Assembly: GCA_020724955.1 (NCBI GenBank)
Contig: DYFY01000004.1
Coordinates: 34,051-66,050, forward strand
DNA: 32,000 bases
Source: Candidatus Parvarchaeum sp.
GTDB taxonomy: Archaea; Nanobdellota; Nanobdellia; Pacearchaeales; GW2011-AR1
Direction: 5' to 3'
Shown here: piece by piece, positions 1 through 16,510 of the stretch
How positions within the stretch are numbered: position 1 is the first letter of the stretch
Layout of the letters: each line of letters starts with the position of its first letter
Translations under genes and position numbers: made by a program
The notes under the pieces: generated by a model
What the model was told of the DNA's origin: nothing
What the model saw: the letters and a program-made list of their open reading frames with translations, nothing else
The model's database searches: none

Positions 1-1
1 A

Positions 2-466
2 GGAAGTTTTCAGATTGATAATAAAACTAACAAAGTGAAATGGATATGCTTTGACTTTGACGGAGATTTGGATACAGAACTTGAAAAAGCTAAGAGACTA
101 TATTCTAAGTTGAAGGATAAGGGATTTTCCCCATTGATAGAATTTAGTGGAAGACGGGGCTATCATATTTGGTTATTTTTAGAGGAAACAAATGCTAAAG
201 ACGCTAAGAAATTCGCAACAGATATTTCTAAGGATGCAGGAGTTAGTGATATTTATCCAAAACAAGAGAAAATTGATCTTAGTGGTTTTGGTGGACAGGT
301 TAAAATCCCTTTGGGTATTCATAGAGCAAGTGGAAAAAGAAGTTATTTTCTCAATGATGATTTTGAAGAAATGAAGCATGATGAGTCAATAAATCTTCTT
401 CGGGAGATTTTCAAATCCAAGAGAGATAAAATAAAAGTAGTTACTCTCAACGACTTTCTAAATTAA
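2..466 (+). CDS. Archaeo-eukaryotic primase (AEP) PrimPol-domain protein, probably 5'-truncated by the window edge
   Basis: The ORF carries AEP motifs in order: DxD (ICFDFDGD), SGxGxH (FSGRRGYHIWLF) and a later strand (GQVKIPLGIHRASGK). The frame is open from nt 2 with no stop upstream of the GTG at 35, so the true start probably lies outside the window. Confidence 0.6.
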   Translation, partial: GSFQIDNKTNKVKWICFDFDGDLDTELEKAKRLYSKLKDKGFSPLIEFSGRRGYHIWLFLEETNAKDAKKFATDISKDAGVSDIYPKQEKIDLSGFGGQVKIPLGIHRASGKRSYFLNDDFEEMKHDESINLLREIFKSKRDKIKVVTLNDFLN

Positions 467-519
467 GATATATTTTTAGTTATAGAAATATCTAAATATG
501 TCTAATATATTTCATTTTT

Positions 520-1770
520 ATGGAAATTATTAACTCCTTGACCAAACTTTGGGATTTCATACCCAACTCTGAAGAGTATTACAACAAACCTCCTAAGGGT
601 CCCCCAGAACATTTACCCACACTTTCTGAAGAAGAAATAGAAAATCTCAGTAAAACCTTTTTTGGAGATCCTCAAGATATGAAAAACTACGCTTATGAGA
701 GTTTAGAATTTAATATAGAAGGAGACATGGCTCCGAAAGAAGTTAAGCTTCCAAATTCAGATGATTTGAAAGACATAAATGTTTGTGCAATTGATGGAAG
801 TAATCAAAGAATTGATCTAATTTCTTTTTATGTTTTATTGGCAAGGGCAACAATCATCAACTTTAGATATTCTAAACCTGGATATAAACCATATTTCTAT
901 ACAAGAAGCAAAGATTGCAGTGGGGTTGTTTGGGTTGATGGAAATATCTTTAATGAAGAAATAGAGACTCATACAAAGAAACTAAGTGGTGAGAATATAG
1001 AGCTAATGTCTGAAATTGAAAAACCAAACAAGGATCCTTTCCTGTTTAGGTATGATCCCTCTAAATCTGAAAAAAGCCCCTCTTCTCAAGCACTTGGGTG
1101 GTCTGTAAAATTACAGCAAGCCTTAGAACTTGCCATGATAAAAGAAGTTCCAAAAAATGCTCCTTGTGTCTGTATAAGGGATGGTCCTCTTTTTTCAACA
1201 AGTGTTGCTCCAAAGGATACAATACAAGGACTATCTCCAATATTTACCTGGAAAGATCAAGTATTAATTTCTTGTTCAAAAAGAGTTAAGGAATCATCTC
1301 TTCTTGTTGAATCTTTGATTTATTCAAAAGAATTAAGAGACTTCTGGTTCCCTAAACAAGAAATTTTGGAAAGCACATTAAGATCAGTTGCTACAGATGC
1401 TTTACTGATTCCGAAAATATTAAAACCAGGTCAAAGAACACCTTTTATAGCAGCTGTTCCAAGAGCAAGAAAGAAAATTGTAGAAGATAATGAGAGACTT
1501 ACCCCTTTGGTCTGTTATTATTATAGCAGGCATAGACCCAACACTTTTATAAGGTTAGAAGTTCCAAAATTTATGTACGAAAGAAATAAGGAAATGGTAG
1601 AAAAAGCTATTCAAATTGTTGCTTGGCAACATGAAATGGGTCATCGTGCCCCCCTTGTTCAACTTGCAGCAGATGAAAGATGTCAATTAGGACCTGAGAA
1701 AAAAATAGTTGAGAATCAAATTAGAGGTTCTTTAGCAAGAAGGGATATAAATTTATCAGAAATATATTAA
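520..1770 (+). CDS. NurA-like nuclease (RNase H-fold 5'-3' nuclease family)
   Basis: It has the NurA-type IDGS motif (VCAIDGSNQRIDL), a later acidic motif (CIRDGPLFS) and a C-terminal H/D-rich segment (WQHEMGHRAPLVQLAADERC). It sits 1 nt upstream of a HerA-like ATPase, the classical NurA partner. The call is from motif recall only. Confidence 0.5.
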   Translation: MEIINSLTKLWDFIPNSEEYYNKPPKGPPEHLPTLSEEEIENLSKTFFGDPQDMKNYAYESLEFNIEGDMAPKEVKLPNSDDLKDINVCAIDGSNQRIDLISFYVLLARATIINFRYSKPGYKPYFYTRSKDCSGVVWVDGNIFNEEIETHTKKLSGENIELMSEIEKPNKDPFLFRYDPSKSEKSPSSQALGWSVKLQQALELAMIKEVPKNAPCVCIRDGPLFSTSVAPKDTIQGLSPIFTWKDQVLISCSKRVKESSLLVESLIYSKELRDFWFPKQEILESTLRSVATDALLIPKILKPGQRTPFIAAVPRARKKIVEDNERLTPLVCYYYSRHRPNTFIRLEVPKFMYERNKEMVEKAIQIVAWQHEMGHRAPLVQLAADERCQLGPEKKIVENQIRGSLARRDINLSEIY

Positions 1771-1771
1771 G

Positions 1772-3580
1772 ATGGCAGAAGAAAAATCCACAAACAAAAC
1801 AGAAGAAAAGAAATATGCTCATCCTTATGCAGATGTTAGAAATCCTTTCTCTGTAGATAGCAAAGGATCCTTGGCAGATTATATCTTATTAGACCCAGAG
1901 TCTATTCCAGAATTAGCATTGGGTGCAAGTATTTTAGTAGAGGATACAAAAAACGGAAAAAAGTTTTGGTCTTCTGGAAGAGTAAATGGGTTAAAGGCAA
2001 TTTCTCCATTTAATCCGAATAGGGAGAACTTGTTGTACATGGATGACAATGGAAACAATCCTATTGAAATATTAAGAGAAATAAAAGGACCCCACACTCA
2101 CCAACCAATAATTATTCAAATTGAATTGGATCAAGAGTTATCTAAAAATGAGGATATTCTTCCTGATAAAAGAAGTTTCATCTCCACACCTATACAAAGA
2201 CCCCCATCTGCATCAAGTAAATTATTCTTTCCAAGAATTCTGCCAGATAACAGCGATGAGGCTCCATCTTTACAAGAAATGCTTGATATAAAAGAAAAAG
2301 GAATTCCTCTTGGTGCTGTTGGTTTTGGGAATATTCCTTATACTCAAGATGGTAAAAGATTAATTTATAACTGGGATATGGAAAACCTTGAGAATAAACA
2401 TATTTTTATTGTGGGAGAAAGTGGTTCTGGAAAAACAGTTTTATTGAAAAATCTCGCATATGAAATAAGAAAAAAACATCCAAATCAAAGAGTAATCTTG
2501 ACAGATGTGCAAGGGGACATTGTGCAGCTATTATTTAAAGATTTTACTAAAGTTATTGAGAGAAGAGGTTGGCAAGCAAACATTCCTTCCGAATCTGTGG
2601 ATGATGCAATTGAGAAATTAGGAAAATTCCAATTAATTATTCCTGCTAAAAAAGAAAAACCAGGATATATTGTTGCCTTAAAGAAACTTGCAGAGAACAG
2701 AGGCATACAAGTTAAAGAAGTTGGTCTAAGGCTCCAAGATCTTTCTAATCCTTCAGATGTTGAATACTTATATAGGGCAGCTTCACAACAAGTAGCCCCC
2801 TTGTTAGATGAAGAAGCTGAAGAAATAAAATCAAATAGTGGAGTGGTTACGATTGATGCTTTAAGAGAGAAAATGGTTACGATTCCAAGTGGGACTAAAG
2901 AAGCCCAACCAATGAGTAGTTCAGGAACTCCTTTTTATAGAAGTACTTACACAGCCGCCATAAGAGCGTTAAAGAATTTAGGAGAATATTTTGATTTCCA
3001 TCAACCATCTATGGCATCTGGGAACAATCCTCTTGATTGTTTGGATTTTGATGGTACGAGCATTTTATTTTTAGACCATTTAACAACGGAAGAAAGAATA
3101 ATGTGGGAAATGCAACTTGTAAATTGGCTCTATAGAAAAAAATCTGAAAGTTGGGAAGCATTCGTCTTCTTTGACGAAGCCCATCAAATAGTTCCTGCTT
3201 ATCCTCCAGTATCAAGTGCAGGAGGGACTTTTGATAGATTAAGAATGAACTTTGAAAGGCTTGCAAGAGAGGGGCGTAAATTTGGGATCAATTTAGTTTT
3301 AAGTACTCAAAGTCCAAAAGATTTACACGAGATAGTTCCTGAACAATGCCCAACCAAAATAATAATGAAGATTAGCCCACGTAATGCAAAATATGCATTT
3401 TTAGATTCAAGATCTGCGTTAATAGCAAATAGATTTGGTCATGGGCAATTTTGGATACAAAGCCCATTCAATGGTACTCCTGAATGGATAAGAATTCATA
3501 GTTGGGCTCCACCATTACCTCACGAAAAAATGGCTACTTATTGGGATAAGATAAAAAAACAAGCACAATCTGAGAATTAA
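1772..3580 (+). CDS. HerA-like (FtsK/HerA superfamily, DUF87-type) hexameric ATPase/translocase
   Basis: Walker A is HIFIVGESGSGKTVLLKNL and Walker B is AFVFFDEAHQIVP. The HerA-typical REGRKFGINLVLSTQSPKDL segment is present, along with an N-terminal barrel-like region (ASILVEDTKNGKKFWSSGRVNGLK). The ATG lies 1 nt after the NurA-like stop. Confidence 0.7.
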   Translation: MAEEKSTNKTEEKKYAHPYADVRNPFSVDSKGSLADYILLDPESIPELALGASILVEDTKNGKKFWSSGRVNGLKAISPFNPNRENLLYMDDNGNNPIEILREIKGPHTHQPIIIQIELDQELSKNEDILPDKRSFISTPIQRPPSASSKLFFPRILPDNSDEAPSLQEMLDIKEKGIPLGAVGFGNIPYTQDGKRLIYNWDMENLENKHIFIVGESGSGKTVLLKNLAYEIRKKHPNQRVILTDVQGDIVQLLFKDFTKVIERRGWQANIPSESVDDAIEKLGKFQLIIPAKKEKPGYIVALKKLAENRGIQVKEVGLRLQDLSNPSDVEYLYRAASQQVAPLLDEEAEEIKSNSGVVTIDALREKMVTIPSGTKEAQPMSSSGTPFYRSTYTAAIRALKNLGEYFDFHQPSMASGNNPLDCLDFDGTSILFLDHLTTEERIMWEMQLVNWLYRKKSESWEAFVFFDEAHQIVPAYPPVSSAGGTFDRLRMNFERLAREGRKFGINLVLSTQSPKDLHEIVPEQCPTKIIMKISPRNAKYAFLDSRSALIANRFGHGQFWIQSPFNGTPEWIRIHSWAPPLPHEKMATYWDKIKKQAQSEN

Positions 3581-4500
3581 TTCGCTTTCAAATAACTTGA
3601 AGTATTATTGAGTATTTTAGCCAAAGAGTCTGCTTTTTTAACACTAAAGAAAACCCTACATATTCCTTTTCCGAGAATAACTTTTTCTTTAAGATTTATT
3701 TCTCTTAATTCATTATAAGAAATGGTTTGTGATCCGACCAAGTATATCCAGGCGATCATGCCGTTATAAAATTCATCTACTGTAACCTTTTTTGAATTTT
3801 TGTTTGAAGTGAGTTCTTTAAACATTAAAGGATTACTCTTTATCAAAGCGTCTTTTCTTCCAAACCTGTAGGAATGGAATTCTCCAAGAGTTAGTAAGAA
3901 ATATCCATTTCGTATAATCTTTAAATAATTGTTGAGGCTTGGCAAAACTGTTCCACAAGTATCTAAATCAAGGAAATCAAATGTTTTATTATAAGAATAA
4001 AGTCTTGCTGCCCACTTCTGTGAGTCCTCATTTACCAAAAAAATGTTTTTACCATTATATTTTCCGAAGAAAACATTTAAGTTATATTTCTCCATTTTCT
4101 TGAATTTTATTTCAAGTTTCTTGCTCAAATTTTTCAATAGTTTATCAAAAACTTTCTTATTAATTTCACAAGAATGTATCTCCTTAACACTATCACTCTC
4201 AAGATAAATTAAAGTTGATTTTCCCTCTCCTGCAAATCCTTCAAACACTTTCTCTGGTTTGATGGATACTAACCATTTTCTTGTTAGGTCATATTTTTCC
4301 TTTCTATGGTCTGAGCCATATTTATCTTGTTTGAATCTCATTCTTCTTATTTTTGCTTTCAGAGAAATTGGTGATCTATGGGGAAGAGATTTTTTTATTT
4401 CTTTTAATGTCTTTCCTTGATTAATCATTTTATTGATTATGTGTTCTTCTTCATTGGACCAGGCTTCTCTTCCTTTAGCTATAGGTTTATTGAATTTCAT
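3577..4500 (-). CDS. Myb/SANT-like HTH fused to a class I SAM-dependent methyltransferase with TRM1-like motif order
   Basis: The N-terminus (WSNEEEHIINKMINQGKTLKEIKKSLPHRSPISLKAKIRRM) resembles a Myb/SANT repeat. The core has motif I (VFEGFAGEGKST), then CEINKKVFDKLLKNL, then FDFLDLDTCGTVLP, which resembles the DLDPFGS motif of N2,N2-dimethylguanosine tRNA methyltransferases. A TATA-like ctatttaag lies about 26 nt upstream of the ATG on the minus strand. Confidence 0.5.
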   Translation of the reverse strand: MKFNKPIAKGREAWSNEEEHIINKMINQGKTLKEIKKSLPHRSPISLKAKIRRMRFKQDKYGSDHRKEKYDLTRKWLVSIKPEKVFEGFAGEGKSTLIYLESDSVKEIHSCEINKKVFDKLLKNLSKKLEIKFKKMEKYNLNVFFGKYNGKNIFLVNEDSQKWAARLYSYNKTFDFLDLDTCGTVLPSLNNYLKIIRNGYFLLTLGEFHSYRFGRKDALIKSNPLMFKELTSNKNSKKVTVDEFYNGMIAWIYLVGSQTISYNELREINLKEKVILGKGICRVFFSVKKADSLAKILNNTSSYLKAN

Positions 4501-4542
4501 AATTTAGTAAAAACAAAGGATCTTAAATAGTTTTCTATGGGC

Positions 4543-5811
4543 TTAAAAATCTATCCCTCGCATCTTTTCTTCAACGACAAATTCTCCTCTAACTCCGAGT
4601 TCATTTATTTCTTGTATAACAACACAGATATTATGGCAGAGAATTTTCAAAAGGAGTTCATTGATTTGAGCAGTTTTTGTTTTAGAACGAAGGTTGTCTT
4701 TAAACTTCGTCTTGATCATATGAAAAACCGTCTCTGAGTTTGACCTTTTATGATAATGTTCTAAGAACTCATCATGCTTGTAAATAAAATAGTGATACAT
4801 TTTTTTCCAGATGCCAACACTTGCTCTTTTGCCTCTTACATTCTTCTTGAAAGGAATGAAGGGGACAGCACCCACATCCTCAATCGCCTGTAAGTTACTT
4901 CTTGAACTATAGGCTTTGTCTCCACTTACTTCGCCCACCTTGAAAGTTTTAGCTGTCTCCTCAACTAAGCGAGGCAATGAAGGACTATCATTCACCTCTC
5001 CTTCAGTAATTTCACAACCAGTAATAATATTGGTTTTTACTCCAGATATTAAATGTGCCTTGAGCCATATTCTGTATTTTGTTTCTCTTTGATGTTTGTA
5101 ACTAAAATAACGAGCAAACCGTGAGGTAGAAAAACCACTTGAATCAATAGCAAAATCAGTTTCAACTTCTCTTAATGGACTTGAACTTATTGAAATTAAT
5201 TCCTTGAGAATTTCGGTTATGTCCTCTCTCTGCATGAAATGACCAACAGAAGCATAGCAAGGCACAGAATCAATTAAATTCATTTCTTTGGCTATTCTTA
5301 TGTCTGAAATAAATCTCCTTAAACTGAAAGTAGAATAAACTTTCAGGACAGAAGCAAAAATTAAATCTGAAATAGGTAATGTTGGTCTGCCGAATTTGTA
5401 AGTTGGCTGTTCGGAGAAATCGGAAAGTTCTCTTAATAGTTTCATGAATAATAATTTCTCATTTGTTTGTGATTTATCGTAAGCTTTCCAATCTTGGGAA
5501 TAAGAAATCTTAACACCTTTTGTCTGAGTAACCTTTCCTTCTTTATCTATTTCTTGTTTAAGATAAAACTCAACTGCGTAAGTATGCTTACATTTTTTAT
5601 TTCTCATAGAACAATCTGGACACGTGCATTTTGGATTATCTCTAATGAACCTAACCATATACTGTCTTGAAGTATTGGTCTGGGAGGTAACTCTCCAACC
5701 GAACGGAGTCTTAACTATTCTTGTTGATTTAGCCAAGAGTTTCCCTCTTTCTTCTCTTGTAAGCTTTTTCCAGTTTGTTTCTTGTAATTGTTCCATTGTC
5801 TTATTAGTCAT
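4543..5811 (-). CDS. Transposase: N-terminal SWIM-type zinc finger plus IS4/IS5-type DDE domain
   Basis: SWIM CxC...CxH pattern (CTCPDCSMRNKKCKHTYAV). DDE signposts are AIDSSGFSTS and SGDKAYSS. A perfect Y-x2-R-x3-E-x6-K signature is present (YHKRSNSETVFHMIK). Confidence 0.7.
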   Translation of the reverse strand: MTNKTMEQLQETNWKKLTREERGKLLAKSTRIVKTPFGWRVTSQTNTSRQYMVRFIRDNPKCTCPDCSMRNKKCKHTYAVEFYLKQEIDKEGKVTQTKGVKISYSQDWKAYDKSQTNEKLLFMKLLRELSDFSEQPTYKFGRPTLPISDLIFASVLKVYSTFSLRRFISDIRIAKEMNLIDSVPCYASVGHFMQREDITEILKELISISSSPLREVETDFAIDSSGFSTSRFARYFSYKHQRETKYRIWLKAHLISGVKTNIITGCEITEGEVNDSPSLPRLVEETAKTFKVGEVSGDKAYSSRSNLQAIEDVGAVPFIPFKKNVRGKRASVGIWKKMYHYFIYKHDEFLEHYHKRSNSETVFHMIKTKFKDNLRSKTKTAQINELLLKILCHNICVVIQEINELGVRGEFVVEEKMRGIDF

Positions 5812-5889
5812 ATAGTAATATATATTACCACTACTATTTAAATGTTTCTATATGGAAATATTTATATACTACTATATATTTTATTTATC

Positions 5890-6024
5890 ATGGAAAGACA
5901 AACGGTAAGTCTTAAACTTGACCCTGAATTGTGGAAAGAGGCGAAAAAAAAGTGCATAGATAAAAATACCTCTTACTCTGAATATGTTGAGAGCCTGATA
6001 AAAAAAGACTTAGGAAAGAAATAA
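5890..6024 (+). CDS. Ribbon-helix-helix (CopG/Arc-like) small DNA-binding protein, 44 aa
   Basis: MERQTVSLKLDPELWKEAKKKCIDKNTSYSEYVESLIKKDL has the RHH pattern of a beta strand followed by two helices. The internal ATG at 5890 is preferred over the track start at 5842 because a TATA-like aatatttatatac lies about 27 nt upstream of it. The first 16 track codons are AT-rich low-complexity. Confidence 0.55.
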   Translation: MERQTVSLKLDPELWKEAKKKCIDKNTSYSEYVESLIKKDLGKK

Positions 6025-6100
6025 ATTATTGTGATGAAGTATATAGATGACTTTTTACACAAGAGCTACTTTATACACAAAGCCGACTAAAGCGAAAAGC

Positions 6101-6975: not shown

Positions 6976-9900
6976 TCATCTCTCAGGAAAGCCTTGCCCG
7001 ATTGTGGCATCTCTAACTTCTATTCTTTTTAACAAAACATCTCTCGTGCCAGGAAAAATATTCCCCTCTGAGTCAGCACAGACTGCAATAATTTCATACT
7101 CTCCGATATTTGATGTATCTAAGGGTCCGACAGCAAAAGGCTTTTGTGAACTAAACTTAGGCTCTATGTATGGCTTGCTTCCTTCTTTAGGAGAGAACTC
7201 TAACGAAACTCTAACAAAACTACACTCATGTTCAACTAACACAGACAAATCCTGATTAATCCTGACAAACTCAATGTCATCCTCTTCTGGAAAATTCTTA
7301 GATTTAAAATTAATAGACTCAATAGCATTATTTTCACATGCATCTCCAACCCCATCGGCATTAATATCTTCCTGGTCGGGATTGGAAACAGAAGGGCAGT
7401 TATCATTGCCGTTTAAAATTCCATCTCCGTCAAAATCGCCCCTTTTCCATTCAGCGTATTTCCGCAACAAATAATCTTCAAGCTTGTTAATTCCGTCCCT
7501 CACGTCGAAAAATCCTTCTCCCCTGATATCCGCGCACTGCTTGGGATCTAGAAGTTTCTTGCAAGACTCTTCCGTCAATTCAGTAGTTGCTTCAGAATCG
7601 CCATATTTCCCTTCCGCTTTCAAATTTCTTGCAATCTGCACAGCCTCTTCATATTCTAATTTCTCCTCTCCTATGCCTGACGTAGACACTCCATTAAGCC
7701 TCCTCAAAAATTCAACTTCTTCTTCTGTTAATTGCGCTTTTTCCTTCAAAGATTCCAGATTGTCAAAAAAGACAATTTTTCCTTCCCTTACACTTCCTAT
7801 AAACACCGCCGCTCCATTGGAAGATTCATAAAATACTCCTCCTGCGCTTAAAATAAAAACACTTGTAGGCCTCCCTTCCAAATAAATAAAGTCTGCTTCA
7901 AAGCTTGGAAATGCCTTAGGAAAACCCTTTTCATATCTCCCTCCAAGTTCAAATATGTTGCGCGAAGATTCAGGCGCAGTCCCGCCATCTTCACTGCTGG
8001 TTTCAGGCCCTGTTATTGCCTCATCTTTATCTTCAGCTATTCCTTCGTCAGAGCCAGTAATTTTAACATCTGCCCCGGCCAACACTTTCGCAAGCCCGTC
8101 AAACAAATTGCCTCTCAAAATAAATAAATCCGCTCTTTGATAATTCAAAAGCAAATGCTTCTCAAGCAAAGAATTTATTTTTTCCTCGAATCTCATTATA
8201 TCTTCCTTCTGCTCCCCTCCCTGGCTGATAATCCTGTTTTTCTCCTCGTTTAATTCATTTCTAATCTTTCCGAATTCCTCGGCGACTTTCAAATTGTCTT
8301 CGCTTAAAGCTTCTGTTTGCTCTTTTTGCAATTCCTCCAAGCCCTTTGTTATTTCCTCTTTTACACCTTTATCCTGGGGGATATTGCTGCTTAACGCGCT
8401 GTCAACGCTCTTCTTATCAAGCCAGCACCCTATTTTCTCGTCATTGCAATAACCGACTCTCACAAATCTGTCTTCCTCAGTTCCTTTTCCTGGATTCTCT
8501 GTCGCGCAGATTCTTGTGACTCCTCTGTTATAAATAGCCGGATCTATAGCCTCCTGTGCAGCTTCCTGAACATTTGGATTTAAGAAAGCACTTGGGTTTA
8601 TTTCTCCGGCAACACACGACCTCTCGGTAGTTATGTCTGTTCTGTTTATCTCATTGGAGACAAACTCATCCCTTATGTAATTGACTGCAAAACTGCTGCT
8701 CACTTGTTTAAACCCGCACTCTTCTTTTTGGTTTATTCTCACGCAAAGTTGCTTATATCCTGCAGGAGCTGTAAAGTCTTTAGTCTCGCTGGCAAAATCC
8801 CCTCTTCCGATAAAGCCAGAATCAACAGCTATTGTCTGTGTACTTGCAAAATGCGAGCTTGCCGGAGGATCTTTCAGGTAAACGCTGTATACAACTCCCC
8901 TGTCATTTCCGGTGAATATGTGATAAAATACTTTATATTGAGAAGTGGCCGGCAAGGTTGCATCGCTGTAAGGTATCTCGCTGAACCACGCATGGAACTG
9001 CGAAGGAGAATCAGGCTCTACCAAAGCCTCAAAATTCGTCGGTATTTTTGCAGAAACAAATGCCTGGCATATTGGCGTCCCTGCTTCTTCAAAAGACCTT
9101 GCCCTAAATGCATCAAAAGCATTCTGTGCATAGTTAGTAGTCATATAATTTATTGATTCCTGAGCATTATCAAAAGCGCTCTGTACTGTCAAATATTCCC
9201 CGCCTCCTCTGCTCTCTCCTCCTGTATAAGCATATTCTATCAGGCGCGGCAACAAACTATTTGCAACCGGTGCAACCTGTCTCCAGAAAAATTCGCAAGT
9301 ATAAACTGATGTGATTTCATCACATATTCCGACAGTTCTTCCTGTTTCCAGATTTTCCTGCAGGCATTGCTGATGGCTTTTCAAAATAGAGGTATAGCCA
9401 TCAATCCCTGCTTTTATTCCAGTGAGGCAAACAGGCACTGCAATTCCTTCCTTGACATTAGGAAGACACAACAAACTGCTTCCGATAATTCCTGTCTGAA
9501 TCACATCATCAACAGGATAAGCTCCTCCTAAATCGCACCTTGAGTTTGGACACACAACAGGATCGCATACATTAAACAACAGCAGGCATTCTTCCGGAGA
9601 CATAAAGTCTTGACACTGGGTTCCAGGAATGCTTGCAGCAGCTCTCCCCACGCTAAACAGCTGGTTTTCTATCCTTATACTGCTCTTCCCGTATTGCTCA
9701 GCAGCGTCGGTAAGTGCTTTGGTGGCTCTCTGCACAAGTTGTTCTGCCTTAGACTCGCTAACTCCAGGAAACTTATTCAAAGGCTGTCCAGTGTCAACAT
9801 CAAACCTTGAACAGATATCATCGCCTAATCCCTCCAAAAACTCAGGCCTCTTGTTTTCTCCTATGTTGCAAATCCAAAAGCTCAAGGGCCTGCCGCTTGA

Positions 9901-12900
9901 TTCAAATGCTTTTATGTTTCCAAATGCAGGCAGACTTTGTTTTGTGGCAACATACCATCCCTCATCTACATCAAACGGCACCAAAGCAGGCATTCCTTTG
10001 TAGGGCTCCCTTTCATAATATCTGATTTCTGCTGTTCCCGGTGCAAACCTGTTATTAAGCTGAATGCTCTCTTCTGCTTGTATTACGCTTATTCCATATT
10101 GTCTGTTAAATTCAGCAAGGTCTATATCTCCTCCAATTTTATTTCCATTTTCATCAACCATCACAACGCTGTCTATTTTGTATTTGCTCCCGGAAAGCTG
10201 GCTTAATTTAAGAGCGTAAATTCCTGCGCCGAGGTTGGCATTTTCAGCAATTCCCAATGAACCCGCTGCAGGCAAAGGCAATGTAGACGTATAATCTCCG
10301 ACCCCGAAAACATTTCCAGCTTTAGTGTTTGTTTCAATCTTTCTGACAGGAGCAAAAACGCTGTTTCTTCCAAGCAACACATCGCTCTCAGCAGTCAAAG
10401 CAAAGCCTTTTTCCTGCAGGCTCTTTGACTTTTCAAATTCCTGCCTGAATTTCAGATTTTCAACAGCATGCCCTCCGATAAGTTCAAGAGATTTTTCAAC
10501 GCTCTTCACACCCACACTGGAAAGAACTCCCGCATTGCCTTCTTTAAGCTCCAGATTATAATACAAATCTCTGAGCTGGTCATACCTGACAACTCCGTTT
10601 TTGTAGCTTTGGTCATCTATCAAGCCATCCACTCTCTGATTTACTCCATTGACATTGATAAGTTTGCTTCCATGTTTGCTTCTTATCTCGCTAATAAGCA
10701 TTTCCGCCGCTTTTTCTCTGTCTATCACTTTATCGTTGAACAAATTCCCAGGAGATTTTTCGGCGTTTCCCTCAATATCCTTTATCCATTTGTTCACTTC
10801 GGTTATCGCCTTGGCGCGGGCTTTTACATCATCGTTGATTTGATCTGCATTTTTATTGAAGCAGTCAGTTAATGAGTTGGCATTCCCAGAACTGACCTCT
10901 TGCTGGCAGATTTCATTCCATCCGCCTGGCCCTCTCATAGTCTGCCTCCTTGCCAAAGCCTCTCCGTTTAACCCTGTAATAAAATTCTTAACTGTTAAAG
11001 TTGCAGATGTCGCCAGACATGCCGCCTTGAGCCCCTTGATTGGATTTTCAAGACCTTTTGAAATTCCTTCCCACTTTTGTATAGACTTATTCAAATTTTC
11101 TATCTTCTCATTTGCCTTTTCAGGAGACAACTTTATAGCCCTTTTTTCTATCCCTATATTTACCGTAAAATTAGTTTCACCTTCAGTTCTTACATTCGGC
11201 TCAAGTCTTATTTTTGCAAAATCTTTGAGGTCTATGCTGTCAAGTTTCAAACTGCCTTCGCAAAAGCTTTCGGCATTTCCTATTTCCAGAGTGATTCTCT
11301 TCCCATCACCAAACTTTTCATCTCCTTTGCAATAAGCTGTAACTTCTGCTCTTCTCTCATCCAGAATTTTATCAAGAGTCAAACTCATTTCTCCTGCTCC
11401 CCCAGATTCCCCGACTCCGACATTAAACTTGCTACTCCCAAAAAAGAAATCTGCATTTGATTTTTCATCTCCTTTCGGAGCTCTGAGCTCAAGAAGTCTT
11501 ATCGTCCTGAACTTGTTGTCTACATCAACAACACTTCCTGCCAGGCTGGAATCTATTGAATAAATAAAATTAAGTCTGTCAAGCATTCCCTCTCTCTCGG
11601 CAGAATCTGGATAGATATCGACAAATTTCTCAATTAATCTTGCTTCAACGCTTTCTTTCCTTAGCCTTTTCGCCAGCTCAATAGCGTGCTTCAGTGCAAG
11701 CTCTCCTTTTGTTTCTGTCAAATCCGAGTTAAGCTCCCTCTCAAAAGCGTAATCTTCTGCAACAAGCTCATAATACTCTATCGCTTTCTGGAAATACTCT
11801 TCAGCCTCTTCGTCATATCTTGCATCAAAAAGCTTCCCGCTGGCTGCAGGAATTATTTTCCTTCCCTCAATCTCATCTAAGCTCCCATCCTTTCCGACAA
11901 TAGTGTACTTCCCGGTTTCAGAATTATAACTCCTGATTTCATAGAATTCATCCTGGTCTCCTCCAAGCTTAGTCACCAAATCTCCCGGCTCAAGAATGCT
12001 AGGGCCTATCTTCAAACTAACTCTCTCACCTCTGCAGGAAATTTCAATCTCTCCTTCATTATCTCGTATATAAGTTATTTTTCTAACATCACATTTCCCG
12101 TTTAGAATTTTGCTGCCTTCATAAACTTCCAAAATATCATCATCAACCTGCAGCTTTGCATATTTGTCTGCGGAAACAAATCCATCATAATAAACCCTCA
12201 ATCCCGCACTGCAATAAGAACCGGGAATGTAAACTTCAGAGCTTTTTCCTTTTTCCACTCTTGCAGAGCTCACCTGTCGGTCTCCTTGGTATATAATCAA
12301 TTGTGCAAAATTTGGCTCAGCATCAGCGAGCCTTACAAAATATTGTCCGTTGAAAAAACTGCTCCTGCTTCTCATCGATTTCCAGTTTTCCTCAGGAATT
12401 TCTCTAAGCAAAAACTCGCTCCTTCCGATTCCAAGAGCATTTCCGGAATAATAGTCCAGCTTGGCACTCAATGTAAAATTAATCTGGCTTGGCAGCTCGT
12501 TTTCAACAGGATTTTTCTTCAAAAGCACAACTATATATCCAACATTCTCTGTAACAGGGCTTCCGGAAAGGCGATTTGTAGTCCTTAAAGCCGCTCTCGC
12601 CGGATGGAATCCTACTCCGGCAACTTCATCAGGGTAGCTTCCTCCAAATCTTATGTTCCTTATTTCCTTGATGTCAAGCAACGGATTAACTTTCAATGCA
12701 CTCAACTGGCAAAACACAGGAACATTTTGCTCTGCGAGTAAATCGCTCCTTACTACAGCTGGCTGACATCCTGCAGGCGCGAGCTGAAGCAAAATATCCT
12801 GCCTCAACGTACAGCTCTCCGGATTGTTCAGAATTGGATAATAAGTGCTAAGCCTGTTTTCCTCGCTGTAAATTTGCCTTAAATCAGAAGGAAGATTTTT

Positions 12901-12999
12901 ATTGACAAAACTAGAACTGGTGCTGTGGTATCCCTGTGCATCAGCTCCTGCAATGAGAAAAACTGCCAAAAAAAAGCCTGCCAATATTAATTTTTTCAT
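6976..12999 (-). CDS. Giant (2007 aa) secreted Cys-rich surface protein with a thrombospondin type-3-like calcium-binding repeat
   Basis: Uninterrupted 6 kb ORF with a signal peptide (MKKLILAGFFLAVFLIAGADAQG). A strong SD (GGAGGTGG) lies about 8-15 nt upstream, and there is an ATGA overlap with the upstream gene. The Cys-dense core (QCQDFMSPEECLLLFNVCDPVVCPNSRCDL...) is at about nt 9290-9620. The TSP3-like motif DFDGDGILNGNDNCPSVSNPDQEDINADGVGDAC is at about nt 7335-7441. There is no C-terminal TM anchor. Confidence 0.8.
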   Translation of the reverse strand: MKKLILAGFFLAVFLIAGADAQGYHSTSSSFVNKNLPSDLRQIYSEENRLSTYYPILNNPESCTLRQDILLQLAPAGCQPAVVRSDLLAEQNVPVFCQLSALKVNPLLDIKEIRNIRFGGSYPDEVAGVGFHPARAALRTTNRLSGSPVTENVGYIVVLLKKNPVENELPSQINFTLSAKLDYYSGNALGIGRSEFLLREIPEENWKSMRSRSSFFNGQYFVRLADAEPNFAQLIIYQGDRQVSSARVEKGKSSEVYIPGSYCSAGLRVYYDGFVSADKYAKLQVDDDILEVYEGSKILNGKCDVRKITYIRDNEGEIEISCRGERVSLKIGPSILEPGDLVTKLGGDQDEFYEIRSYNSETGKYTIVGKDGSLDEIEGRKIIPAASGKLFDARYDEEAEEYFQKAIEYYELVAEDYAFERELNSDLTETKGELALKHAIELAKRLRKESVEARLIEKFVDIYPDSAEREGMLDRLNFIYSIDSSLAGSVVDVDNKFRTIRLLELRAPKGDEKSNADFFFGSSKFNVGVGESGGAGEMSLTLDKILDERRAEVTAYCKGDEKFGDGKRITLEIGNAESFCEGSLKLDSIDLKDFAKIRLEPNVRTEGETNFTVNIGIEKRAIKLSPEKANEKIENLNKSIQKWEGISKGLENPIKGLKAACLATSATLTVKNFITGLNGEALARRQTMRGPGGWNEICQQEVSSGNANSLTDCFNKNADQINDDVKARAKAITEVNKWIKDIEGNAEKSPGNLFNDKVIDREKAAEMLISEIRSKHGSKLINVNGVNQRVDGLIDDQSYKNGVVRYDQLRDLYYNLELKEGNAGVLSSVGVKSVEKSLELIGGHAVENLKFRQEFEKSKSLQEKGFALTAESDVLLGRNSVFAPVRKIETNTKAGNVFGVGDYTSTLPLPAAGSLGIAENANLGAGIYALKLSQLSGSKYKIDSVVMVDENGNKIGGDIDLAEFNRQYGISVIQAEESIQLNNRFAPGTAEIRYYEREPYKGMPALVPFDVDEGWYVATKQSLPAFGNIKAFESSGRPLSFWICNIGENKRPEFLEGLGDDICSRFDVDTGQPLNKFPGVSESKAEQLVQRATKALTDAAEQYGKSSIRIENQLFSVGRAAASIPGTQCQDFMSPEECLLLFNVCDPVVCPNSRCDLGGAYPVDDVIQTGIIGSSLLCLPNVKEGIAVPVCLTGIKAGIDGYTSILKSHQQCLQENLETGRTVGICDEITSVYTCEFFWRQVAPVANSLLPRLIEYAYTGGESRGGGEYLTVQSAFDNAQESINYMTTNYAQNAFDAFRARSFEEAGTPICQAFVSAKIPTNFEALVEPDSPSQFHAWFSEIPYSDATLPATSQYKVFYHIFTGNDRGVVYSVYLKDPPASSHFASTQTIAVDSGFIGRGDFASETKDFTAPAGYKQLCVRINQKEECGFKQVSSSFAVNYIRDEFVSNEINRTDITTERSCVAGEINPSAFLNPNVQEAAQEAIDPAIYNRGVTRICATENPGKGTEEDRFVRVGYCNDEKIGCWLDKKSVDSALSSNIPQDKGVKEEITKGLEELQKEQTEALSEDNLKVAEEFGKIRNELNEEKNRIISQGGEQKEDIMRFEEKINSLLEKHLLLNYQRADLFILRGNLFDGLAKVLAGADVKITGSDEGIAEDKDEAITGPETSSEDGGTAPESSRNIFELGGRYEKGFPKAFPSFEADFIYLEGRPTSVFILSAGGVFYESSNGAAVFIGSVREGKIVFFDNLESLKEKAQLTEEEVEFLRRLNGVSTSGIGEEKLEYEEAVQIARNLKAEGKYGDSEATTELTEESCKKLLDPKQCADIRGEGFFDVRDGINKLEDYLLRKYAEWKRGDFDGDGILNGNDNCPSVSNPDQEDINADGVGDACENNAIESINFKSKNFPEEDDIEFVRINQDLSVLVEHECSFVRVSLEFSPKEGSKPYIEPKFSSQKPFAVGPLDTSNIGEYEIIAVCADSEGNIFPGTRDVLLKRIEVRDATIGQGFPER

Positions 13000-14861
13000 A
13001 TGAATTCCACCTCCACTCCGTTTGCGCTGAAAACTTCTTGATTAATCTGAAGCTGCTCAAGGTTTGTTGGGCTTCCAAGGCTTTTTACATTAATAACCAT
13101 TTTTCCCTTAAGCAAATCGCTTTCTAAAAGATATGCCTCAGATCTGCCTCCTGCAGTCAATGCTCTCTCTATTTTCGTTTCAGGAATTTCAATGTCAAAG
13201 CATTTCTCCTCGGTTGCTCCAAATATTCCAAATAACCCTCCCTTAGCAACCTCAACACATTGGGTTTTTGCAGATGCAGGGATGACTATATTAGCCGCGC
13301 CATAAACATACACGCTGACATCATAAAGGTCTTCTGAAATTTTCAGTGCTTTGTTTTCAGGCCAGACCGCAGTAATCACTTTTTCCCCGGATGAAAAGCT
13401 CACAATCGCATCATCCAAAGACTCTTTTCCGTCTATTCTTAATTCAATTTCTATATCATGCTCCCTGTCCAGAATTATGTCTGCCTCTGTTTCAGAATTC
13501 GATGAAAAAAGCTGTTTTTTCCATGTATACCCTTCAGCCTCTGCAATCAGGTATCCATTCACGCACTGCGGAATTGATGTCCTCAAAACAGACTCTGTTC
13601 CGGAGATTTCTGTCTTCCCAAGTTCGCAGACACTATCAAGGCACTGGTATTTTATTTGGGCCTCGACAGGATTAAGATTATTGTCAAAACTGCGTATTTC
13701 AGCCTGTCCCTCCCTAAAATCACATGGATCAAACTCGCTTTCATCCTGAGCGGTCAAGAGCAAATCAGCCTTTCTCGGAAGATTATTGTCTATAATTACA
13801 TTAACTGGAAATTGAAAAATTTCAAGTCCATCATAAACCTGTATCATAACAGGAAAATTAATGTCATAGACAAAATGATAGGGAATATAACAGAATCCCA
13901 AAACTCCCAGCCCTTCCTGATTTCCGACAGGCTTGGAAATCATCAATTCCCCCTCGGTCGGTGTCACTTCCACTTTGCTTGGCCAGTCTTTCAAATACAA
14001 AACCTGCACCGGCTCATCAACATTCAAATCCACAACAAAATATTCATCTTCCTTTTCATCAAGGCTGTAATAGTCTCCCTTAAATTTAATGGCTTGTAGA
14101 TTTTCCTCCAAACCAGTCTTTATGTCATCAGCAACTTCACTTGCCTTCCAAATTCTTGGACTGCATTCTGCTTCAACTCCGTCAACCGGAGCATATAATC
14201 TAAGAACATCAATTGAATAGTCTTCAAGAAAATTTTCAGATGTTTGTTTGTCATAGATGCTCCTCGCAGTGTTGTAAAGCTTGCCAATTTTGCTGTCGAC
14301 GCTTATCTCATGGGATTCTTTCCTCGCACTCAACTCATTTTTGCTTGCAAAAATATTGTTATTAACAATAACTTCAGTCTTCTCGTCTTGTATATCCACT
14401 CTCACTTCAGGTTTATCAAATTCAATAAAAAATCCCTGCTCATAAAACCCAGAAAAATCGCATTCTTCCAGGCTTGTGCTAAGAAAATTTTCCAATTCAT
14501 TTTCCATTTCCCTTTCAGTTGGGACATTCTCCCTAAAGACTCCGTTCCCGGACTGGTAAAACCAAAAAGGAACAGGCGTTCCAAGAAAATTTAATTCCGA
14601 AGAAACAGGAGAAAACTCACTTGCAGGCTCATATTCCCCTGCGCTTATTCTCCCTCCCTGGCTTCCAATAAGACTCAGTCCATTGGCAGTTTTAACCTCA
14701 ATGCAATCGCTGTAATACTGATAGACAGGAGCTATCTCAGGATGTATTTCTGCCCCAAAAATCCCCAGCCTGAAAGCAAAAAACGCGGCTACAACGACAA
14801 CAATCACTATCGCGATTATGATAAAAATGCTCACCTGCCCTCTTTTATACATTTCTCTCAT
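12996..14861 (-). CDS. Membrane-anchored or pilin-like-signal extracellular protein (about 620 aa), first gene of the surface operon
   Basis: Long ORF with its stop overlapping the giant gene start (ATGA). The ATG at 14861 or 14852 gives MREMYKRGQVSIFIIIAIVIVVVVAAFFAF, a charged n-region, a KRGQ motif and a roughly 20-aa hydrophobic helix. The track start at 14954 is a TTG preceding a low-complexity basic stretch. The remainder is beta-rich with scattered Cys pairs. Confidence 0.7.
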   Translation of the reverse strand: MREMYKRGQVSIFIIIAIVIVVVVAAFFAFRLGIFGAEIHPEIAPVYQYYSDCIEVKTANGLSLIGSQGGRISAGEYEPASEFSPVSSELNFLGTPVPFWFYQSGNGVFRENVPTEREMENELENFLSTSLEECDFSGFYEQGFFIEFDKPEVRVDIQDEKTEVIVNNNIFASKNELSARKESHEISVDSKIGKLYNTARSIYDKQTSENFLEDYSIDVLRLYAPVDGVEAECSPRIWKASEVADDIKTGLEENLQAIKFKGDYYSLDEKEDEYFVVDLNVDEPVQVLYLKDWPSKVEVTPTEGELMISKPVGNQEGLGVLGFCYIPYHFVYDINFPVMIQVYDGLEIFQFPVNVIIDNNLPRKADLLLTAQDESEFDPCDFREGQAEIRSFDNNLNPVEAQIKYQCLDSVCELGKTEISGTESVLRTSIPQCVNGYLIAEAEGYTWKKQLFSSNSETEADIILDREHDIEIELRIDGKESLDDAIVSFSSGEKVITAVWPENKALKISEDLYDVSVYVYGAANIVIPASAKTQCVEVAKGGLFGIFGATEEKCFDIEIPETKIERALTAGGRSEAYLLESDLLKGKMVINVKSLGSPTNLEQLQINQEVFSANGVEVEFI

Positions 14862-15060
14862 TTCCTGCCTTTTTCCTGATAAGCTCAATAATTTCGCTGT
14901 TAATATCTTTTTTGATGCTCTTCTTGAACCTCTCCCAAAGCTTCTCGTCTTCAATAATTAGCAGATATTTTTTCACGCTCTTTCTCCCTGGAAACTATGA
15001 TAAAATTAATATATAAATGTTTCTTACTAAATTACTTACTTAGTAAGTTAGTTAATAAGA

Positions 15061-15131
15061 TGGCCCCACGCAGAATCGAACTGCGGACTCGCCCACGTCA
15101 AGGGCGCGGTTTACCACTGACCTATGGGGCC
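15061..15131 (-). tRNA. tRNA-Val (anticodon GAC)
   Basis: The reverse complement folds as a cloverleaf: GGCCCCA TA GGTCAGTGGTAAACC G CGCCC TTGACGT GGGCG AGTC CGCAG TTCGATT CTGCG TGGGGCC A. It has a 7-bp acceptor stem, a 5-bp anticodon stem, a 7-nt loop with GAC at positions 34-36, and a T-loop TTCGATT. No CCA is encoded. Confidence 0.85.
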
Positions 15132-15261
15132 TGTCCCTAACCCTTGCCAAAACATTGAAGATTGAACTTCTGTGCCTTGGCACTCTGCGAAAAACATATA
15201 TTTTTATTATGCCTTTCGCTATAAATAACTTAAAGCCCGGTTTTATAAGCTTTCTCACAAT

Positions 15262-15272
15262 CTTTATATATA
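15262..15272 (+). promoter_or_regulatory. TATA box (ctttatatata) for the 15292 gene
   Basis: The centre is about 25 nt upstream of the ATG at 15292. Confidence 0.4.
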
Positions 15273-15291
15273 TTCCAGGCTAAGAAAAGGC

Positions 15292-15552
15292 ATGGTGAAA
15301 AAGATTCTAGGGTATGTTTTAGCAATAATAGGAATATTGGCAATCTCTGCATCCTCTATAGATCAGATCCGTGCCCCGCTGGCGCCCTATATTCCTCTGG
15401 AAATTTCCAATAATTATCTTCTCATCGGTGGAATAGCTCTTGCAGTCATAGGAATTTTTCTCGTTTTGAAATCGCCACGCTCACGAAAACAAAAATCAGT
15501 TGAAGTTCCGATATACCATGGAAAAAACATCGTGGGATACCGAAGAACTTAA
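15292..15552 (+). CDS. Small two-TM membrane protein (86 aa), unknown function
   Basis: Two hydrophobic helices (ILGYVLAIIGILAISASS and LLIGGIALAVIGIFLVL) are followed by a basic tail. A TATA box sits at leaderless spacing. The stop overlaps the left target-site duplication of the IS by 1 nt. Confidence 0.5.
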   Translation: MVKKILGYVLAIIGILAISASSIDQIRAPLAPYIPLEISNNYLLIGGIALAVIGIFLVLKSPRSRKQKSVEVPIYHGKNIVGYRRT

Positions 15553-16510
15553 GCACAGCAGCATAGTCCGGAATGACTAAAACAACCAAGATTACAAAAA
15601 AATAACTGACCAGTGTTTGCTCAGATGCAGATGATTTGTCAAATTTTACATTCATTCTGATATTATAAAATAATATATGCCAGCCCATCTCTCTTTTCTT
15701 CATATAGGGCAGTTTGCTTCTTAGCTTTGGATCCTGAACTCGCTTGATAGAGGAGATAACAGATTCAACAATAGGTCTCCGATTGTAAACCTTTTTGTTA
15801 GATTGATAGTTTCTTTCTTTCCTTAATCTCTTAAAGTTATTATGCCTACATTTGCCCTTGTAATCTTTTGGTGGAGAAATAAAGTTGTTTTGATTTGCCT
15901 TGGCTAAATTTTCATATTCGTAATCCGGATAGCCCTTATCCGCAACAATCTTTACTCTTCTAAATTTGAATTTTTTTATTAGCTTCTTCCCAACAAATGT
16001 ATCGCTTCTGTTCTTTAACAGAAATGAATAGTCAATTATATGTTTTTTTCTGTTAGTATCGACGAGAATATCTAGTTTATTGTATGGTCTGCTTGTCTTC
16101 AGCTTAAACTCTTTTCTTCGCTTCTCATAGTAAGGAGATCTAAAGTTTGATTGGATGCCAGTCCCATCAATGGCAACTATTCTAAGGTCGCTTGTGTCTG
16201 TCACAAGATTGACCAATCTTTTTATGAGCTTTACTCCAAACAGCTTTAACCAATCGTGAAATGTGCTTTTCCCAGGAATCTTCTTCAAGCCAAGCCATGA
16301 AGACCATCTTGATTCGCACAGCCATTCTATGAAATCTCTAATGGACTTTTTGCTTTTTCTAAACAAAACTATTAGAGAAATACGCTGATAGTTAGTGAAC
16401 TCCTTATTGCCATAGTGATTGAAATGATTTGGCAAACCTGAATTATGAAAAAGTTTAATTAGCTGTTTTTGTACTGGATTATTAACTTGAGTGATTTGTT
16501 TTTGTACCAT
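15446..16510 (-). CDS. DDE transposase (IS4/IS5 type); the ORF has no stop inside the IS and reads about 115 nt into flanking DNA
   Basis: The first catalytic Asp is in VAIDGTGIQ and the second in IVADKGYPD. A perfect YREK signature is present (YNRRPIVESVISSIKR). The last roughly 38 codons (from ...VIPDYAAVLKFF) are encoded by the left IR and the flank. Confidence 0.7.
   Translation of the reverse strand: MVQKQITQVNNPVQKQLIKLFHNSGLPNHFNHYGNKEFTNYQRISLIVLFRKSKKSIRDFIEWLCESRWSSWLGLKKIPGKSTFHDWLKLFGVKLIKRLVNLVTDTSDLRIVAIDGTGIQSNFRSPYYEKRRKEFKLKTSRPYNKLDILVDTNRKKHIIDYSFLLKNRSDTFVGKKLIKKFKFRRVKIVADKGYPDYEYENLAKANQNNFISPPKDYKGKCRHNNFKRLRKERNYQSNKKVYNRRPIVESVISSIKRVQDPKLRSKLPYMKKREMGWHILFYNIRMNVKFDKSSASEQTLVSYFFVILVVLVIPDYAAVLKFFGIPRCFFHGISELQLIFVFVSVAISKREKFL
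15552..15560. repeat. Left copy of the 9-bp target-site duplication AGCACAGCA
   Basis: An identical 9-mer is found at 16568-16576, immediately outside the inverted repeats. Confidence 0.75.

Follow-up and report, generated by a model that had tools for sequence, protein, structure and literature searches.

The stretch of DNA analyzed here (the window) comprises the 32,000 nt at positions 34,051 to 66,050 of contig DYFY01000004.1 from Candidatus Parvarchaeum sp., and its left edge is occupied by genes for an AEP primase-polymerase, a NurA-like nuclease, a HerA-like ATPase and a methyltransferase, followed by a transposase. From the letters alone these had been described as a four-gene cassette in an AT-rich island, serving either as a modification-linked defence system or as the maintenance core of an integrated element (hereafter the original prediction). 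We found that the island with the cassette is one discrete DDE transposon of 6,313 bp that carries cargo and resides in an archaeal genome of DPANN type, and that the conserved unit within its cargo is three genes, encoding the NurA-like nuclease, the HerA-like ATPase and a Myb plus Trm1-like methyltransferase (the triad). An exact-protein look-up placed the same locus on six public contigs, among them a 50-kb Joint Genome Institute contig (L001) carrying window base 1 at its position 9482. The features of the element are listed below, with coordinates in the window unless prefixed by a contig handle.

1-6085 plus the 227 nt left of the window (L001:9254-15566): the transposon.
L001:9247-9253: left copy of the target-site duplication ACTAAAG, directly outside the left terminal inverted repeat (TIR).
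L001:9254-9271, 210-227 nt before the window start: left TIR arm, the perfect inverted partner of the right arm.
2-466 (stop codon 464-466; L001:9333-9947), plus strand: stand-alone AEP primase-polymerase, 204 aa, with its C-terminal 154 residues in the window.
520-1770, plus strand: NurA-like nuclease, 416 aa, RNase H-like fold (Pfam NurA PF09376, AlphaFold and Foldseek).
1772-3580, plus strand: putative hexameric ATPase-translocase of the HerA/FtsK superfamily, 602 aa (Pfam DUF87 and TrwB_AAD_bind, PADLOC HerA models).
3577-4500, minus strand: methyltransferase, 307 aa; a Myb/SANT-like DNA-binding domain at the N-terminus is followed by a Trm1-like Rossmann domain and, at the C-terminus, by a domain that is uncharacterised.
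1-4578, no strand: the part of the cargo slot inside the window, from blastn against the sister elements L051 and L124; the slot starts about 179 nt before the window.
4543-5811, minus strand: DDE transposase, 422 aa, DDE_Tnp_1, IS5-like (Pfam DDE_Tnp_1, E = 8e-22), transposon backbone.
5842-6024, plus strand: ribbon-helix-helix (RHH; Arc/CopG-like) protein, 60 aa (PHROGs Arc-like repressor, E = 8e-6), transposon backbone.
6050-6085, minus strand: right transposon end, with the subterminal repeat ACTTTTTACACA (6050-6061) and the TIR (6068-6085; CGGCTTTGTGTATAAAGT on the minus strand).
6086-6092, no strand: right-hand ACTAAAG heptamer of the target-site duplication, abutting the right TIR.

The element is recognized as a transposon because of its perfect TIRs, the ACTAAAG duplication, the drop in G+C at its boundaries and the existence of copies with unrelated flanks, and these features, together with the DDE_Tnp_1 match of its transposase, are those of a DDE transposon. 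The two 18-nt TIRs (L001:9254-9271 and L001:15549-15566, sequence CGGCTTTGTGTATAAAGT) are perfect, and two TIR matches were obtained in 0 of 100 dinucleotide shuffles. Enclosed by the repeats are exactly the AEP, NurA, HerA, methyltransferase and transposase genes and the 60-aa RHH gene. With a G+C of 0.331, compared with 0.378 in the left flank, 0.416 in the right flank and 0.385 in the rest of the window, the element is the lowest-G+C 6.3-kb stretch within the window; its genes have a G+C at third codon positions of 0.22–0.29, compared with about 0.41 in TFB and S8e on its flanks, and the G+C step falls at the TIR boundaries. The AT-rich island of the original prediction is thus real as regards its low G+C but differs in extent, ending at 6085 instead of 4500 and starting 227 nt before the window. 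Its description of the genes as tightly packed was borne out, the NurA-like and HerA-like genes being one base apart and the methyltransferase gene overlapping the latter convergently by 4 nt, as was that of an insertion sequence (IS)-type transposase directly after the cassette; the motifs it quoted are all present in the translations.

The transposase also gave a weak match to a SWIM-type zinc finger at its N-terminus (E = 0.0089, 16.0 bits, below the Pfam cut-off of 19.6 bits) and scored 126 bits against NCBIfam IS5_2, below the cut-off of 140; a 7-bp target duplication is atypical of the IS5 subgroups. The RHH protein, a probable regulator, is 97% identical in the sister element L051. Within the conserved left end (L001:9288-9332, window -193 to -149), about 25 nt 5' of the AEP start codon, lies AAATTTATATAAG, which resembles the TATA box of archaea, so that the AEP, NurA and HerA genes could be transcribed from inside the transposon end; a promoter and terminator scan gave fewer sites than shuffles and is uninformative for an archaeon. 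The expected empty insertion site reads ...CCCAGACTAAAGCGAAAAGC..., and a search for empty or alternative sites found none, contigs identified by an exact match to the flanking protein or to the transposase all carrying the same insertion.

Scanning metagenome contigs with the 18-mer TIR, we obtained matches in 77 contigs, with similarity extending inward from the TIR in at least 43 and with outer flanks that were all different. This inward similarity follows either the left end of the window element (TIR followed by ctgaataaRgg..ttACTTTTTACACAG) or its right end (TIR followed by agcNtcTGTGTAAAAAGT), and transposase homologues of 53–89% identity were encoded in 13 contigs bearing the same terminal repeat. 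Perfect 7-bp duplications, found in four of five independent complete copies, include ATTTCAA (L051 and L124), TTTGGAT (L084) and CTTTATT (L109). One complete sister element with good inverted repeats but without a target-site duplication (L057:25-6355) may have arisen by recombination between two copies. When the window element was compared with L051 and L124 by blastn, the shared regions were window 4579-6082 (84% nucleotide identity), which comprises the RHH and transposase genes together with the right end, and the 52-nt left end (94%), with the 4.8 kb between them replaced. L051 and L124 encode a transposase that shares about 89% identity with that of the window and belongs to the same 90% cluster. 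The cargo of the sister elements was as follows.

L051 and L124: N6_Mtase, Methylase_S and two genes without assigned function.
L057: N6_Mtase/S fusion and a PD-(D/E)XK nuclease.
L084: N6_Mtase/Eco57I, a 500-aa protein and a PD-(D/E)XK nuclease.
L049: N6_Mtase, a PD-(D/E)XK nuclease and Fic.
L072: GmrSD and an EcoRI methylase.
L071: a C5 cytosine methylase (5-methylcytosine, m5C).

Since this slot in the relatives holds restriction-modification (RM) genes, the four-gene slot of the window is an RM slot in its relatives. The elements L051, L124, L057, L084, L049, L069, L072 and L071 form a family of DDE transposons of about 6 kb, with an RHH-plus-transposase backbone and one cargo slot, and several of their cargo proteins (149, 155 and 500 aa) have no family match. 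The family seems confined to low-G+C contigs, and its source is most likely DPANN archaea; a TIR search of IMG/VR gave no match, and we found no published description of a transposon family with such swappable cargo. Related concepts are the 'transporter IS' of the ISfinder nomenclature, an IS that carries passengers, and mobile RM units, the latter reportedly treated by Furuta et al. in 2010. The likeness to these lies in a DDE transposase, TIRs and a target duplication that enclose genes not serving transposition, with RM genes as cargo, whereas the differences are the 7-bp duplication, the low-G+C host range and a single slot in which defence cargo is systematically exchanged.

The triad is a self-contained module that is under purifying selection and has moved horizontally between phyla. 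Homologues of its NurA-like protein formed 90 clusters with 40–91% identity, and a genome scan at one genome per species yielded 19 loci, from Saccharibacteria, Acidobacteriota, many Bacteroidota, Gamma- and Deltaproteobacteria and Nanohaloarchaea. A HerA homologue (41–60% identity) comes directly after NurA in all 19. Next to HerA, on one strand or the other, 13 have a methyltransferase homologue, or 13 of the 16 informative loci when the three that stop at a contig edge just after HerA are left out; these 13 belong to Bacteroidota, Saccharibacteria, Proteobacteria and Nanohaloarchaea. Carriers in culture include Neolewinella lacunae KCTC 42187 (L009) and Chryseobacterium (L016). Gaps between the triad genes are mostly of 4 nt or less, and the flanking genes are unrelated between the 19 loci. 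Neither the window transposase nor its terminal repeat was found at the 13 triad genome loci, bacterial and nanohaloarchaeal. In a Nanoarchaeia metagenome-assembled genome (L109–L112), repeats of the same kind enclose the NurA, HerA, methyltransferase, transposase and RHH genes at a different site, which has a duplication of its own (CTTTATT). The proteins of this copy have 51–55% amino-acid identity to those of the window, and no AEP gene was called in L109. Three further contigs (L113–L115) carry the triad without the transposase. The four-gene combination of the original prediction has to be narrowed to a conserved unit of three genes, no AEP homologue being found in the 19 loci and none being called in L109. 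A syntenic, host-like core block shared by relatives, which it had named as an outcome that would speak against a special system, was not what we found, the distribution being patchy, the flanks non-syntenic and the composition foreign. It had also regarded the combination as undescribed, and we found no description of the triad in PADLOC 2023, NCBIfam, Pfam or the literature searched, although an operon of the Thermus element ICETh1, considered below, is a close architectural precedent.

Some further features of these loci can be recorded. Comparing L109:9883-16062 with L001:9254-15566, the end types are swapped relative to the internal genes, with the 'left-type' end on the RHH side in L109, so that the internal segment is inverted relative to the ends. 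About 1.7 kb upstream of the triad in L113, on the opposite strand (L113:901-3764), there is a second DUF87/HerA-like ATPase gene (629 aa) with partners of 208 and 115 aa. An XRE regulator of about 72 aa is encoded directly upstream of NurA in four loci, and a protein of about 500 aa with AlbA_2 (Schlafen) and HATPase_c_4 domains directly after the methyltransferase in seven Bacteroidota loci (L011, L013, L014, L015, L016, L022 and L024), AlbA_2 being present in eight neighbouring proteins overall; both may have an accessory or regulatory part in a Bacteroidota subtype. Other recurrent neighbours were HEPN_LA2681, AAA_21 (AbiEii-like), ResIII helicases and HTH_17. In Bacteroides reticulotermitis JCM 10512 (L024:10001-11283) the NurA homologue is split into two open reading frames of 217 and 213 aa, probably a frameshift or pseudogene in an otherwise intact module. 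The NurA-like protein had no match in plasmid, phage or IMG/VR collections.

This distribution bears on whether all four genes serve the transposon, with the primase-polymerase and NurA–HerA processing or repairing donor and target DNA after DDE cleavage or replicating an excised intermediate. The inverted repeats do enclose all four, mobile elements often carry stand-alone primase-polymerases, and an AEP gene whose product is 80% identical precedes NurA–HerA in L125, beside a decayed copy of the same transposon end. However, L051 and L124, whose transposase is about 89% identical, carry none of the four and still move, the triad occurs at 13 genome loci where the window transposase or terminal repeat was not found, and L109 has no AEP; we hold such a role in transposition to be very improbable. 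The maintenance-core alternative of the original prediction was right in that the genes are mobile-element cargo, but the element is a 6.3-kb DDE transposon without a replication core, and its left end lies about 210 nt outside the window.

As to the proteins themselves, the NurA-like protein scored 29.4 bits against Pfam PF09376 (cut-off 21, E = 7e-7), and its AlphaFold model, made with 80 homologues, had a pLDDT (predicted local distance difference test) of 93. The 13 best Foldseek matches of this model in the PDB were all NurA or its homologue TM1739 (7f6d_G, 1zup, 2ygk, 3tal and 9x1m), and its fold matches include the Deinococcus and Thermococcus HerA–NurA complexes. The family sequence profile, when run against solved structures, reached no NurA; since solved NurA proteins were reached by fold only and not by sequence, the protein represents a distant NurA branch. 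Across the 80 homologues no variation is seen at E203, D293 or E347, and hardly any at D92, in the IDGS motif (AIDGSNQ in the translation), D140, D221 or H371/E372. The HerA-like protein scored 28.5 bits against DUF87 (PF01935; cut-off 23.2), and among PADLOC models it matched those for HerA (1e-21) and mad8 (8e-23) and, weakly, DndH. Its nearest solved structures are the HerA chains of the Sir2-HerA and DUF4297-HerA complexes (8j4u, 8xau, 8ziq and 9c1m) and archaeal HerA, and it lies far below every NCBIfam equivalog cut-off. It contains the motifs GESGSGKT, FDEAH and REGRKFG, and in 18 HerA homologues Walker A (G215-T222), Walker B (D468/E469) and the arginine-finger residues R499/R502 are invariant.

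With a NurA fold, HerA family membership and a tight gene coupling that resembles archaeal repair operons, the pair might be taken for an ordinary chromosomal HerA–NurA end-resection pair that happens to lie beside an IS. The likeness to the archaeal and Deinococcus resection systems also includes adjacent, probably translationally coupled genes and a presumed hexamer–dimer complex that would degrade DNA processively. Against such a repair pair, the window genes lie inside a transposon with a target duplication, have a composition foreign to the host and a dedicated methyltransferase partner, and are found patchily across phyla at 37–56% identity with non-syntenic flanks; the scores against the repair HerA equivalogs were 37.5 bits compared with a cut-off of 970 (NF040819) and 34.1 compared with 800 (NF040937). 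Neither mre11, rad50 nor an integrase gene was found next to the cassette on L001. The absence of the Mre11-Rad50 genes, which the original prediction had noted within the window, holds when the contig is extended by about 9.5 kb to the left, where genes for TFIIB, S8e, LSM and tRNAs are found instead. We regard a repair function as extremely improbable.

For the methyltransferase, a word-indexed search found three homologues, and an exhaustive search of representatives was then used, revealing a rare family of about 25 full-length clusters among 1.84 billion representatives that is captured by no curated profile in Pfam, NCBIfam or PADLOC. The single sequence matched Pfam TRM weakly (E = 0.008, 15.9 bits versus a cut-off of 27) and TIGR00308 at 14 bits versus a cut-off of 280. 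The profile of the 25 members, run against the PDB, matched c-Myb at the N-terminus (E = 3.8e-8) and Pyrococcus Trm1 (2dul, E = 6.3e-7), and Pfam matches among the members were to TRM in 10 of 25 and to Myb in 13 of 25, in addition to Methyltransf_15, Cons_hypoth95 and TRM5. The alignment to 2dul covers motif I through motif IV (DLDPFGS) only, and the C-terminal tRNA-binding domain of Trm1 is absent, so that the relation to Trm1, judged from these alignments, is one of superfamily-level similarity only. The S-adenosylmethionine (SAM) motif I (FEGFAGEG) and motif IV (LDLDTCG in the window protein; DLD(T/P)(C/Y)GS in the family, aligned to DLDPFGS of Trm1) are conserved as in class I SAM-dependent amino-methyltransferases, and G91, G93, D178 and D180 are invariant. 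The cysteine of DLDTCG was considered as a C5-methyltransferase nucleophile and rejected, being Tyr in the homologue P0093, with the preceding Thr being Pro in L020. The domain calls of the original prediction were upheld by these profile searches, AEP-TOTE, NurA and DUF87 scoring above the Pfam cut-offs and the methyltransferase call, weak for the single sequence, being supported by the family profile. Judging from the invariance of catalytic-type residues in all three families, the three enzymes of the module look active.

With moderate confidence, we interpret the triad as a mobile RM-like defence or addiction module in which NurA–HerA is the DNA-degrading effector. This reading is based on the equivalence of the cargo slot, a controller-like XRE gene, the defence-type neighbours and the operon structure. 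In such a system the methyltransferase would bind DNA through its Myb domain and either mark the resident genome or act as a specificity or sensor subunit; a HerA hexamer with a NurA dimer would load on unmarked or broken foreign DNA and degrade it processively, driven by ATP. The outcome would be defence akin to RM, and the module might in addition, like other RM systems, stabilise its transposon through addiction. Discrimination between self and non-self, and activity against viruses, are inferred. The modification-linked defence alternative of the original prediction is retained to the extent that nuclease, motor and methyltransferase form one mobile RM-like module, of which AEP is not a part.

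Several observations weigh against a defence function, the methyltransferase being its weak point, as the relatives of this protein all act on RNA. The solved structures matched by the methyltransferase domain of the family profile are all RNA methyltransferases (Trm1, Trm5, RsmD-like, KsgA/Erm and Tgs1), no DNA methyltransferase was found among the 43 family-profile matches, and what points to DNA as the likely substrate is the Myb domain and the context only. The structure prediction for this protein, from a 3-sequence alignment, had a pLDDT of 46 and was unusable, and no PADLOC model matched either the methyltransferase or the NurA-like protein. At L017, L021 and L025, moreover, NurA–HerA occurs without the methyltransferase. 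Finally, the one operon of this gene order that has been studied experimentally, that of ICETh1, acts in DNA donation, with a minor effect of its methylase (PMC5365140, PMC7767461).

The structural matches and the Pfam families listed above would also suit a methyltransferase with an RNA substrate, such as the tRNA guanine methylated by Trm1, in a module that would be toxin-antitoxin-like or translation-linked. Yet the conserved N-terminal Myb/SANT domain is typical of double-stranded DNA binding, the partners are a double-stranded DNA translocase and a DNA nuclease, the tRNA-binding domain of Trm1 is missing and the sister elements have RM cargo in the same slot, and we consider an RNA substrate very improbable.

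The parallel with ICETh1 of Thermus thermophilus HB27 suggests another function, as the operon there encodes the type IIG enzyme TthHB27I/Tth111II, the NurA-like TTC1878, TdtA and the methylase TTC1880, and is followed by a DDE transposase (PMC5365140, PMC7767461). Compared by published gene order, both loci have a NurA-like gene directly upstream of that for an FtsK/HerA ATPase, then a methyltransferase and a DDE transposase, and both sets are on mobile elements, ICETh1 being absent from sister strains. The triad could by analogy be a machine for DNA donation or secretion, in which HerA, like TdtA, would export double-stranded DNA, NurA would trim it and the methylase would be accessory, which would help the element or host DNA to spread horizontally. 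In Thermus, transjugation depends on NurA and TdtA (PMC5365140; PMC7767461), and a PrimPol is also linked to this pair of elements, the one on the partner element ICETh2 limiting the uptake of environmental DNA (PMC7693054). In addition, the best Pfam match of the window HerA was the coupling-protein family TrwB_AAD_bind (E = 2.4e-10), and NCBIfam matches included the DNA-import ATPases CedB and CedD; these TrwB and Ced matches, however, span the P-loop region alone (residues 199-260). The two systems also differ, ICETh1 being a 14.9-kb tyrosine-recombinase element at a tRNA gene as opposed to the TIR-bounded transposon of the window. Its type IIG RM enzyme, needed for function, has no counterpart in the window element or the 19 loci, and its methylase is of the N4/N6 type (PF01555) whereas that of the window is Myb plus Trm1-like. 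Neither the 90 NurA homologues nor the 19 genome loci included a Thermus relative, and the sister transposons hold ordinary RM genes in the same slot. With these points on both sides, we judge DNA donation to be unlikely, although it is the main rival to defence.

Returning to defence, the triad is best placed beside two known kinds of system, namely HerA-plus-effector systems and modification-linked motor–nuclease systems. With Sir2-HerA and DUF4297-HerA it has in common a HerA-family ATPase, presumably hexameric, encoded beside an enzymatic effector, but the effector in those is Sir2 or a Cap4-like nuclease and here NurA, with the methyltransferase as a third conserved component; the window HerA scored 61 bits against NCBIfam HerA_antiphage (cut-off 800), and neither Sir2 nor DUF4297 is present. 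Type I RM, DISARM, Dnd/DndFGH and MADS follow the same scheme, in which a modification enzyme is combined with an ATP-driven translocase and a nuclease, whereas none of their signature proteins is in the window module. Membership of MADS was rejected, as mad6, mad7 and mad8 are all mandatory in its MacSyFinder rule (10.1101/2023.03.30.534895) and do not occur together in PADLOC searches, mad8 alone being matched, by HerA. That match probably reflects the shared HerA/FtsK fold only, given that HHpred searches of PDB sequences were the basis of the MADS profiles.

A stronger version of the defence interpretation would see the triad as a new RM-like class of immunity in which a HerA–NurA resection effector is combined with a Trm1-like self-mark, possibly N2-methylguanine in DNA, the system travelling as swappable cargo on a transposon family of low-G+C, probably DPANN, archaea and the triad occurring in bacteria as well as archaea; this we offer as a speculation with little likelihood of being correct. 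The suggested mark comes from the nearest relatives of the methyltransferase, which methylate guanine at N2. To our knowledge, N2-methylguanine in DNA is not known as a prokaryotic RM mark.

The AEP gene is treated as a separately captured extra passenger outside the conserved module, because no homologue of it was found in the 19 loci, it was not called in L109 and it belongs to a family that usually adjoins TcmP. Its start lies 148 nt before the window, the start of which cuts the frame. At full length the protein matched Pfam AEP-TOTE with 96 bits (E = 2.6e-27), the NCBIfam CRISPR-associated PrimPol (E = 3e-25) and the PrimPol domain of DRT UG10 in PADLOC (E = 8e-23), and it has the motifs FDFDGD and SGRRGYH. 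Using tblastn, no AEP homologue was found in the 19 triad genome loci, and the same was true for the 243-aa gene upstream of it. The order AEP-NurA-HerA recurs only in L125, where a decayed copy of the transposon end lies beside it. The TOTE conflict system, source of the AEP-TOTE model, is defined by TPR, OB/cold-shock and TBP components alongside an effector (PMC12458937); apart from the AEP domain, none of these components was found in any neighbouring protein.

This family of about 200-aa AEP proteins is at 45–80% identity, and the few that are named come mostly from DPANN archaea. The family adjoins TcmP in four contexts (L116:7001-8786, L118:7001-9496, L120:7001-9538 and L126:6596-7392), three recognized by profile (TIGR04474) and one by sequence similarity alone, and two of these (L118 and L120) also encode an SPL-like radical-SAM enzyme. 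The two genes are usually convergent with an overlap of about 8–26 nt, on the same strand in L126, and the loci are often beside MmeI/Eco57I-type RM genes or an integrase. AEP-TcmP may be a separate, uncharacterised module. TcmP, also of about 307 aa and convergent with AEP, was rejected as a relative of the window methyltransferase, BLASTP being negative and hhalign giving a probability of 1.2%.

Outside the transposon, L001 carries to the left of the cassette the 243-aa gene (p243), tRNA-Leu and the TFIIB, S8e and LSM genes, and to the right the transposase and surface-protein genes. From the genes on the left, the host is an archaeon. The tRNA-Leu(TAG) gene and then p243, which has no family match and an intermediate G+C of 0.36, occupy L001:8371-9251, directly left of the transposon, and p243 could be a remnant of another insertion. 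Window 6976-14954 encodes a protein of 2,007 aa that weakly matches thrombospondin type-3 repeats (a strain variant in L002 has 1,969 aa) and, after it, a 652-aa protein without family match, both probably host surface proteins. A second DDE_Tnp_1 transposase of 354 aa, unrelated in sequence to the first, is encoded on the minus strand at 15446-16510 in a low-G+C stretch (15061-16510) adjoined by tRNA-Val (15061-15131), and no clear inverted repeats were found around it.

If the triad does act in defence, NurA would join the HerA-coupled effectors, in a third, methyltransferase-dependent design beside Sir2-HerA and DUF4297-HerA, and the chemistry of its methyltransferase may differ from that giving N6-methyladenine (m6A), N4-methylcytosine (m4C) or m5C. 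The ICETh1 parallel raises the question of whether operons of NurA, HerA and a methylase serve in defence, in DNA donation or in both. As one and the same transposon backbone carries either RM genes or the triad, the other cargo of this family without known function becomes a source of candidate defence genes in DPANN archaea, the immune repertoire of which is poorly known.

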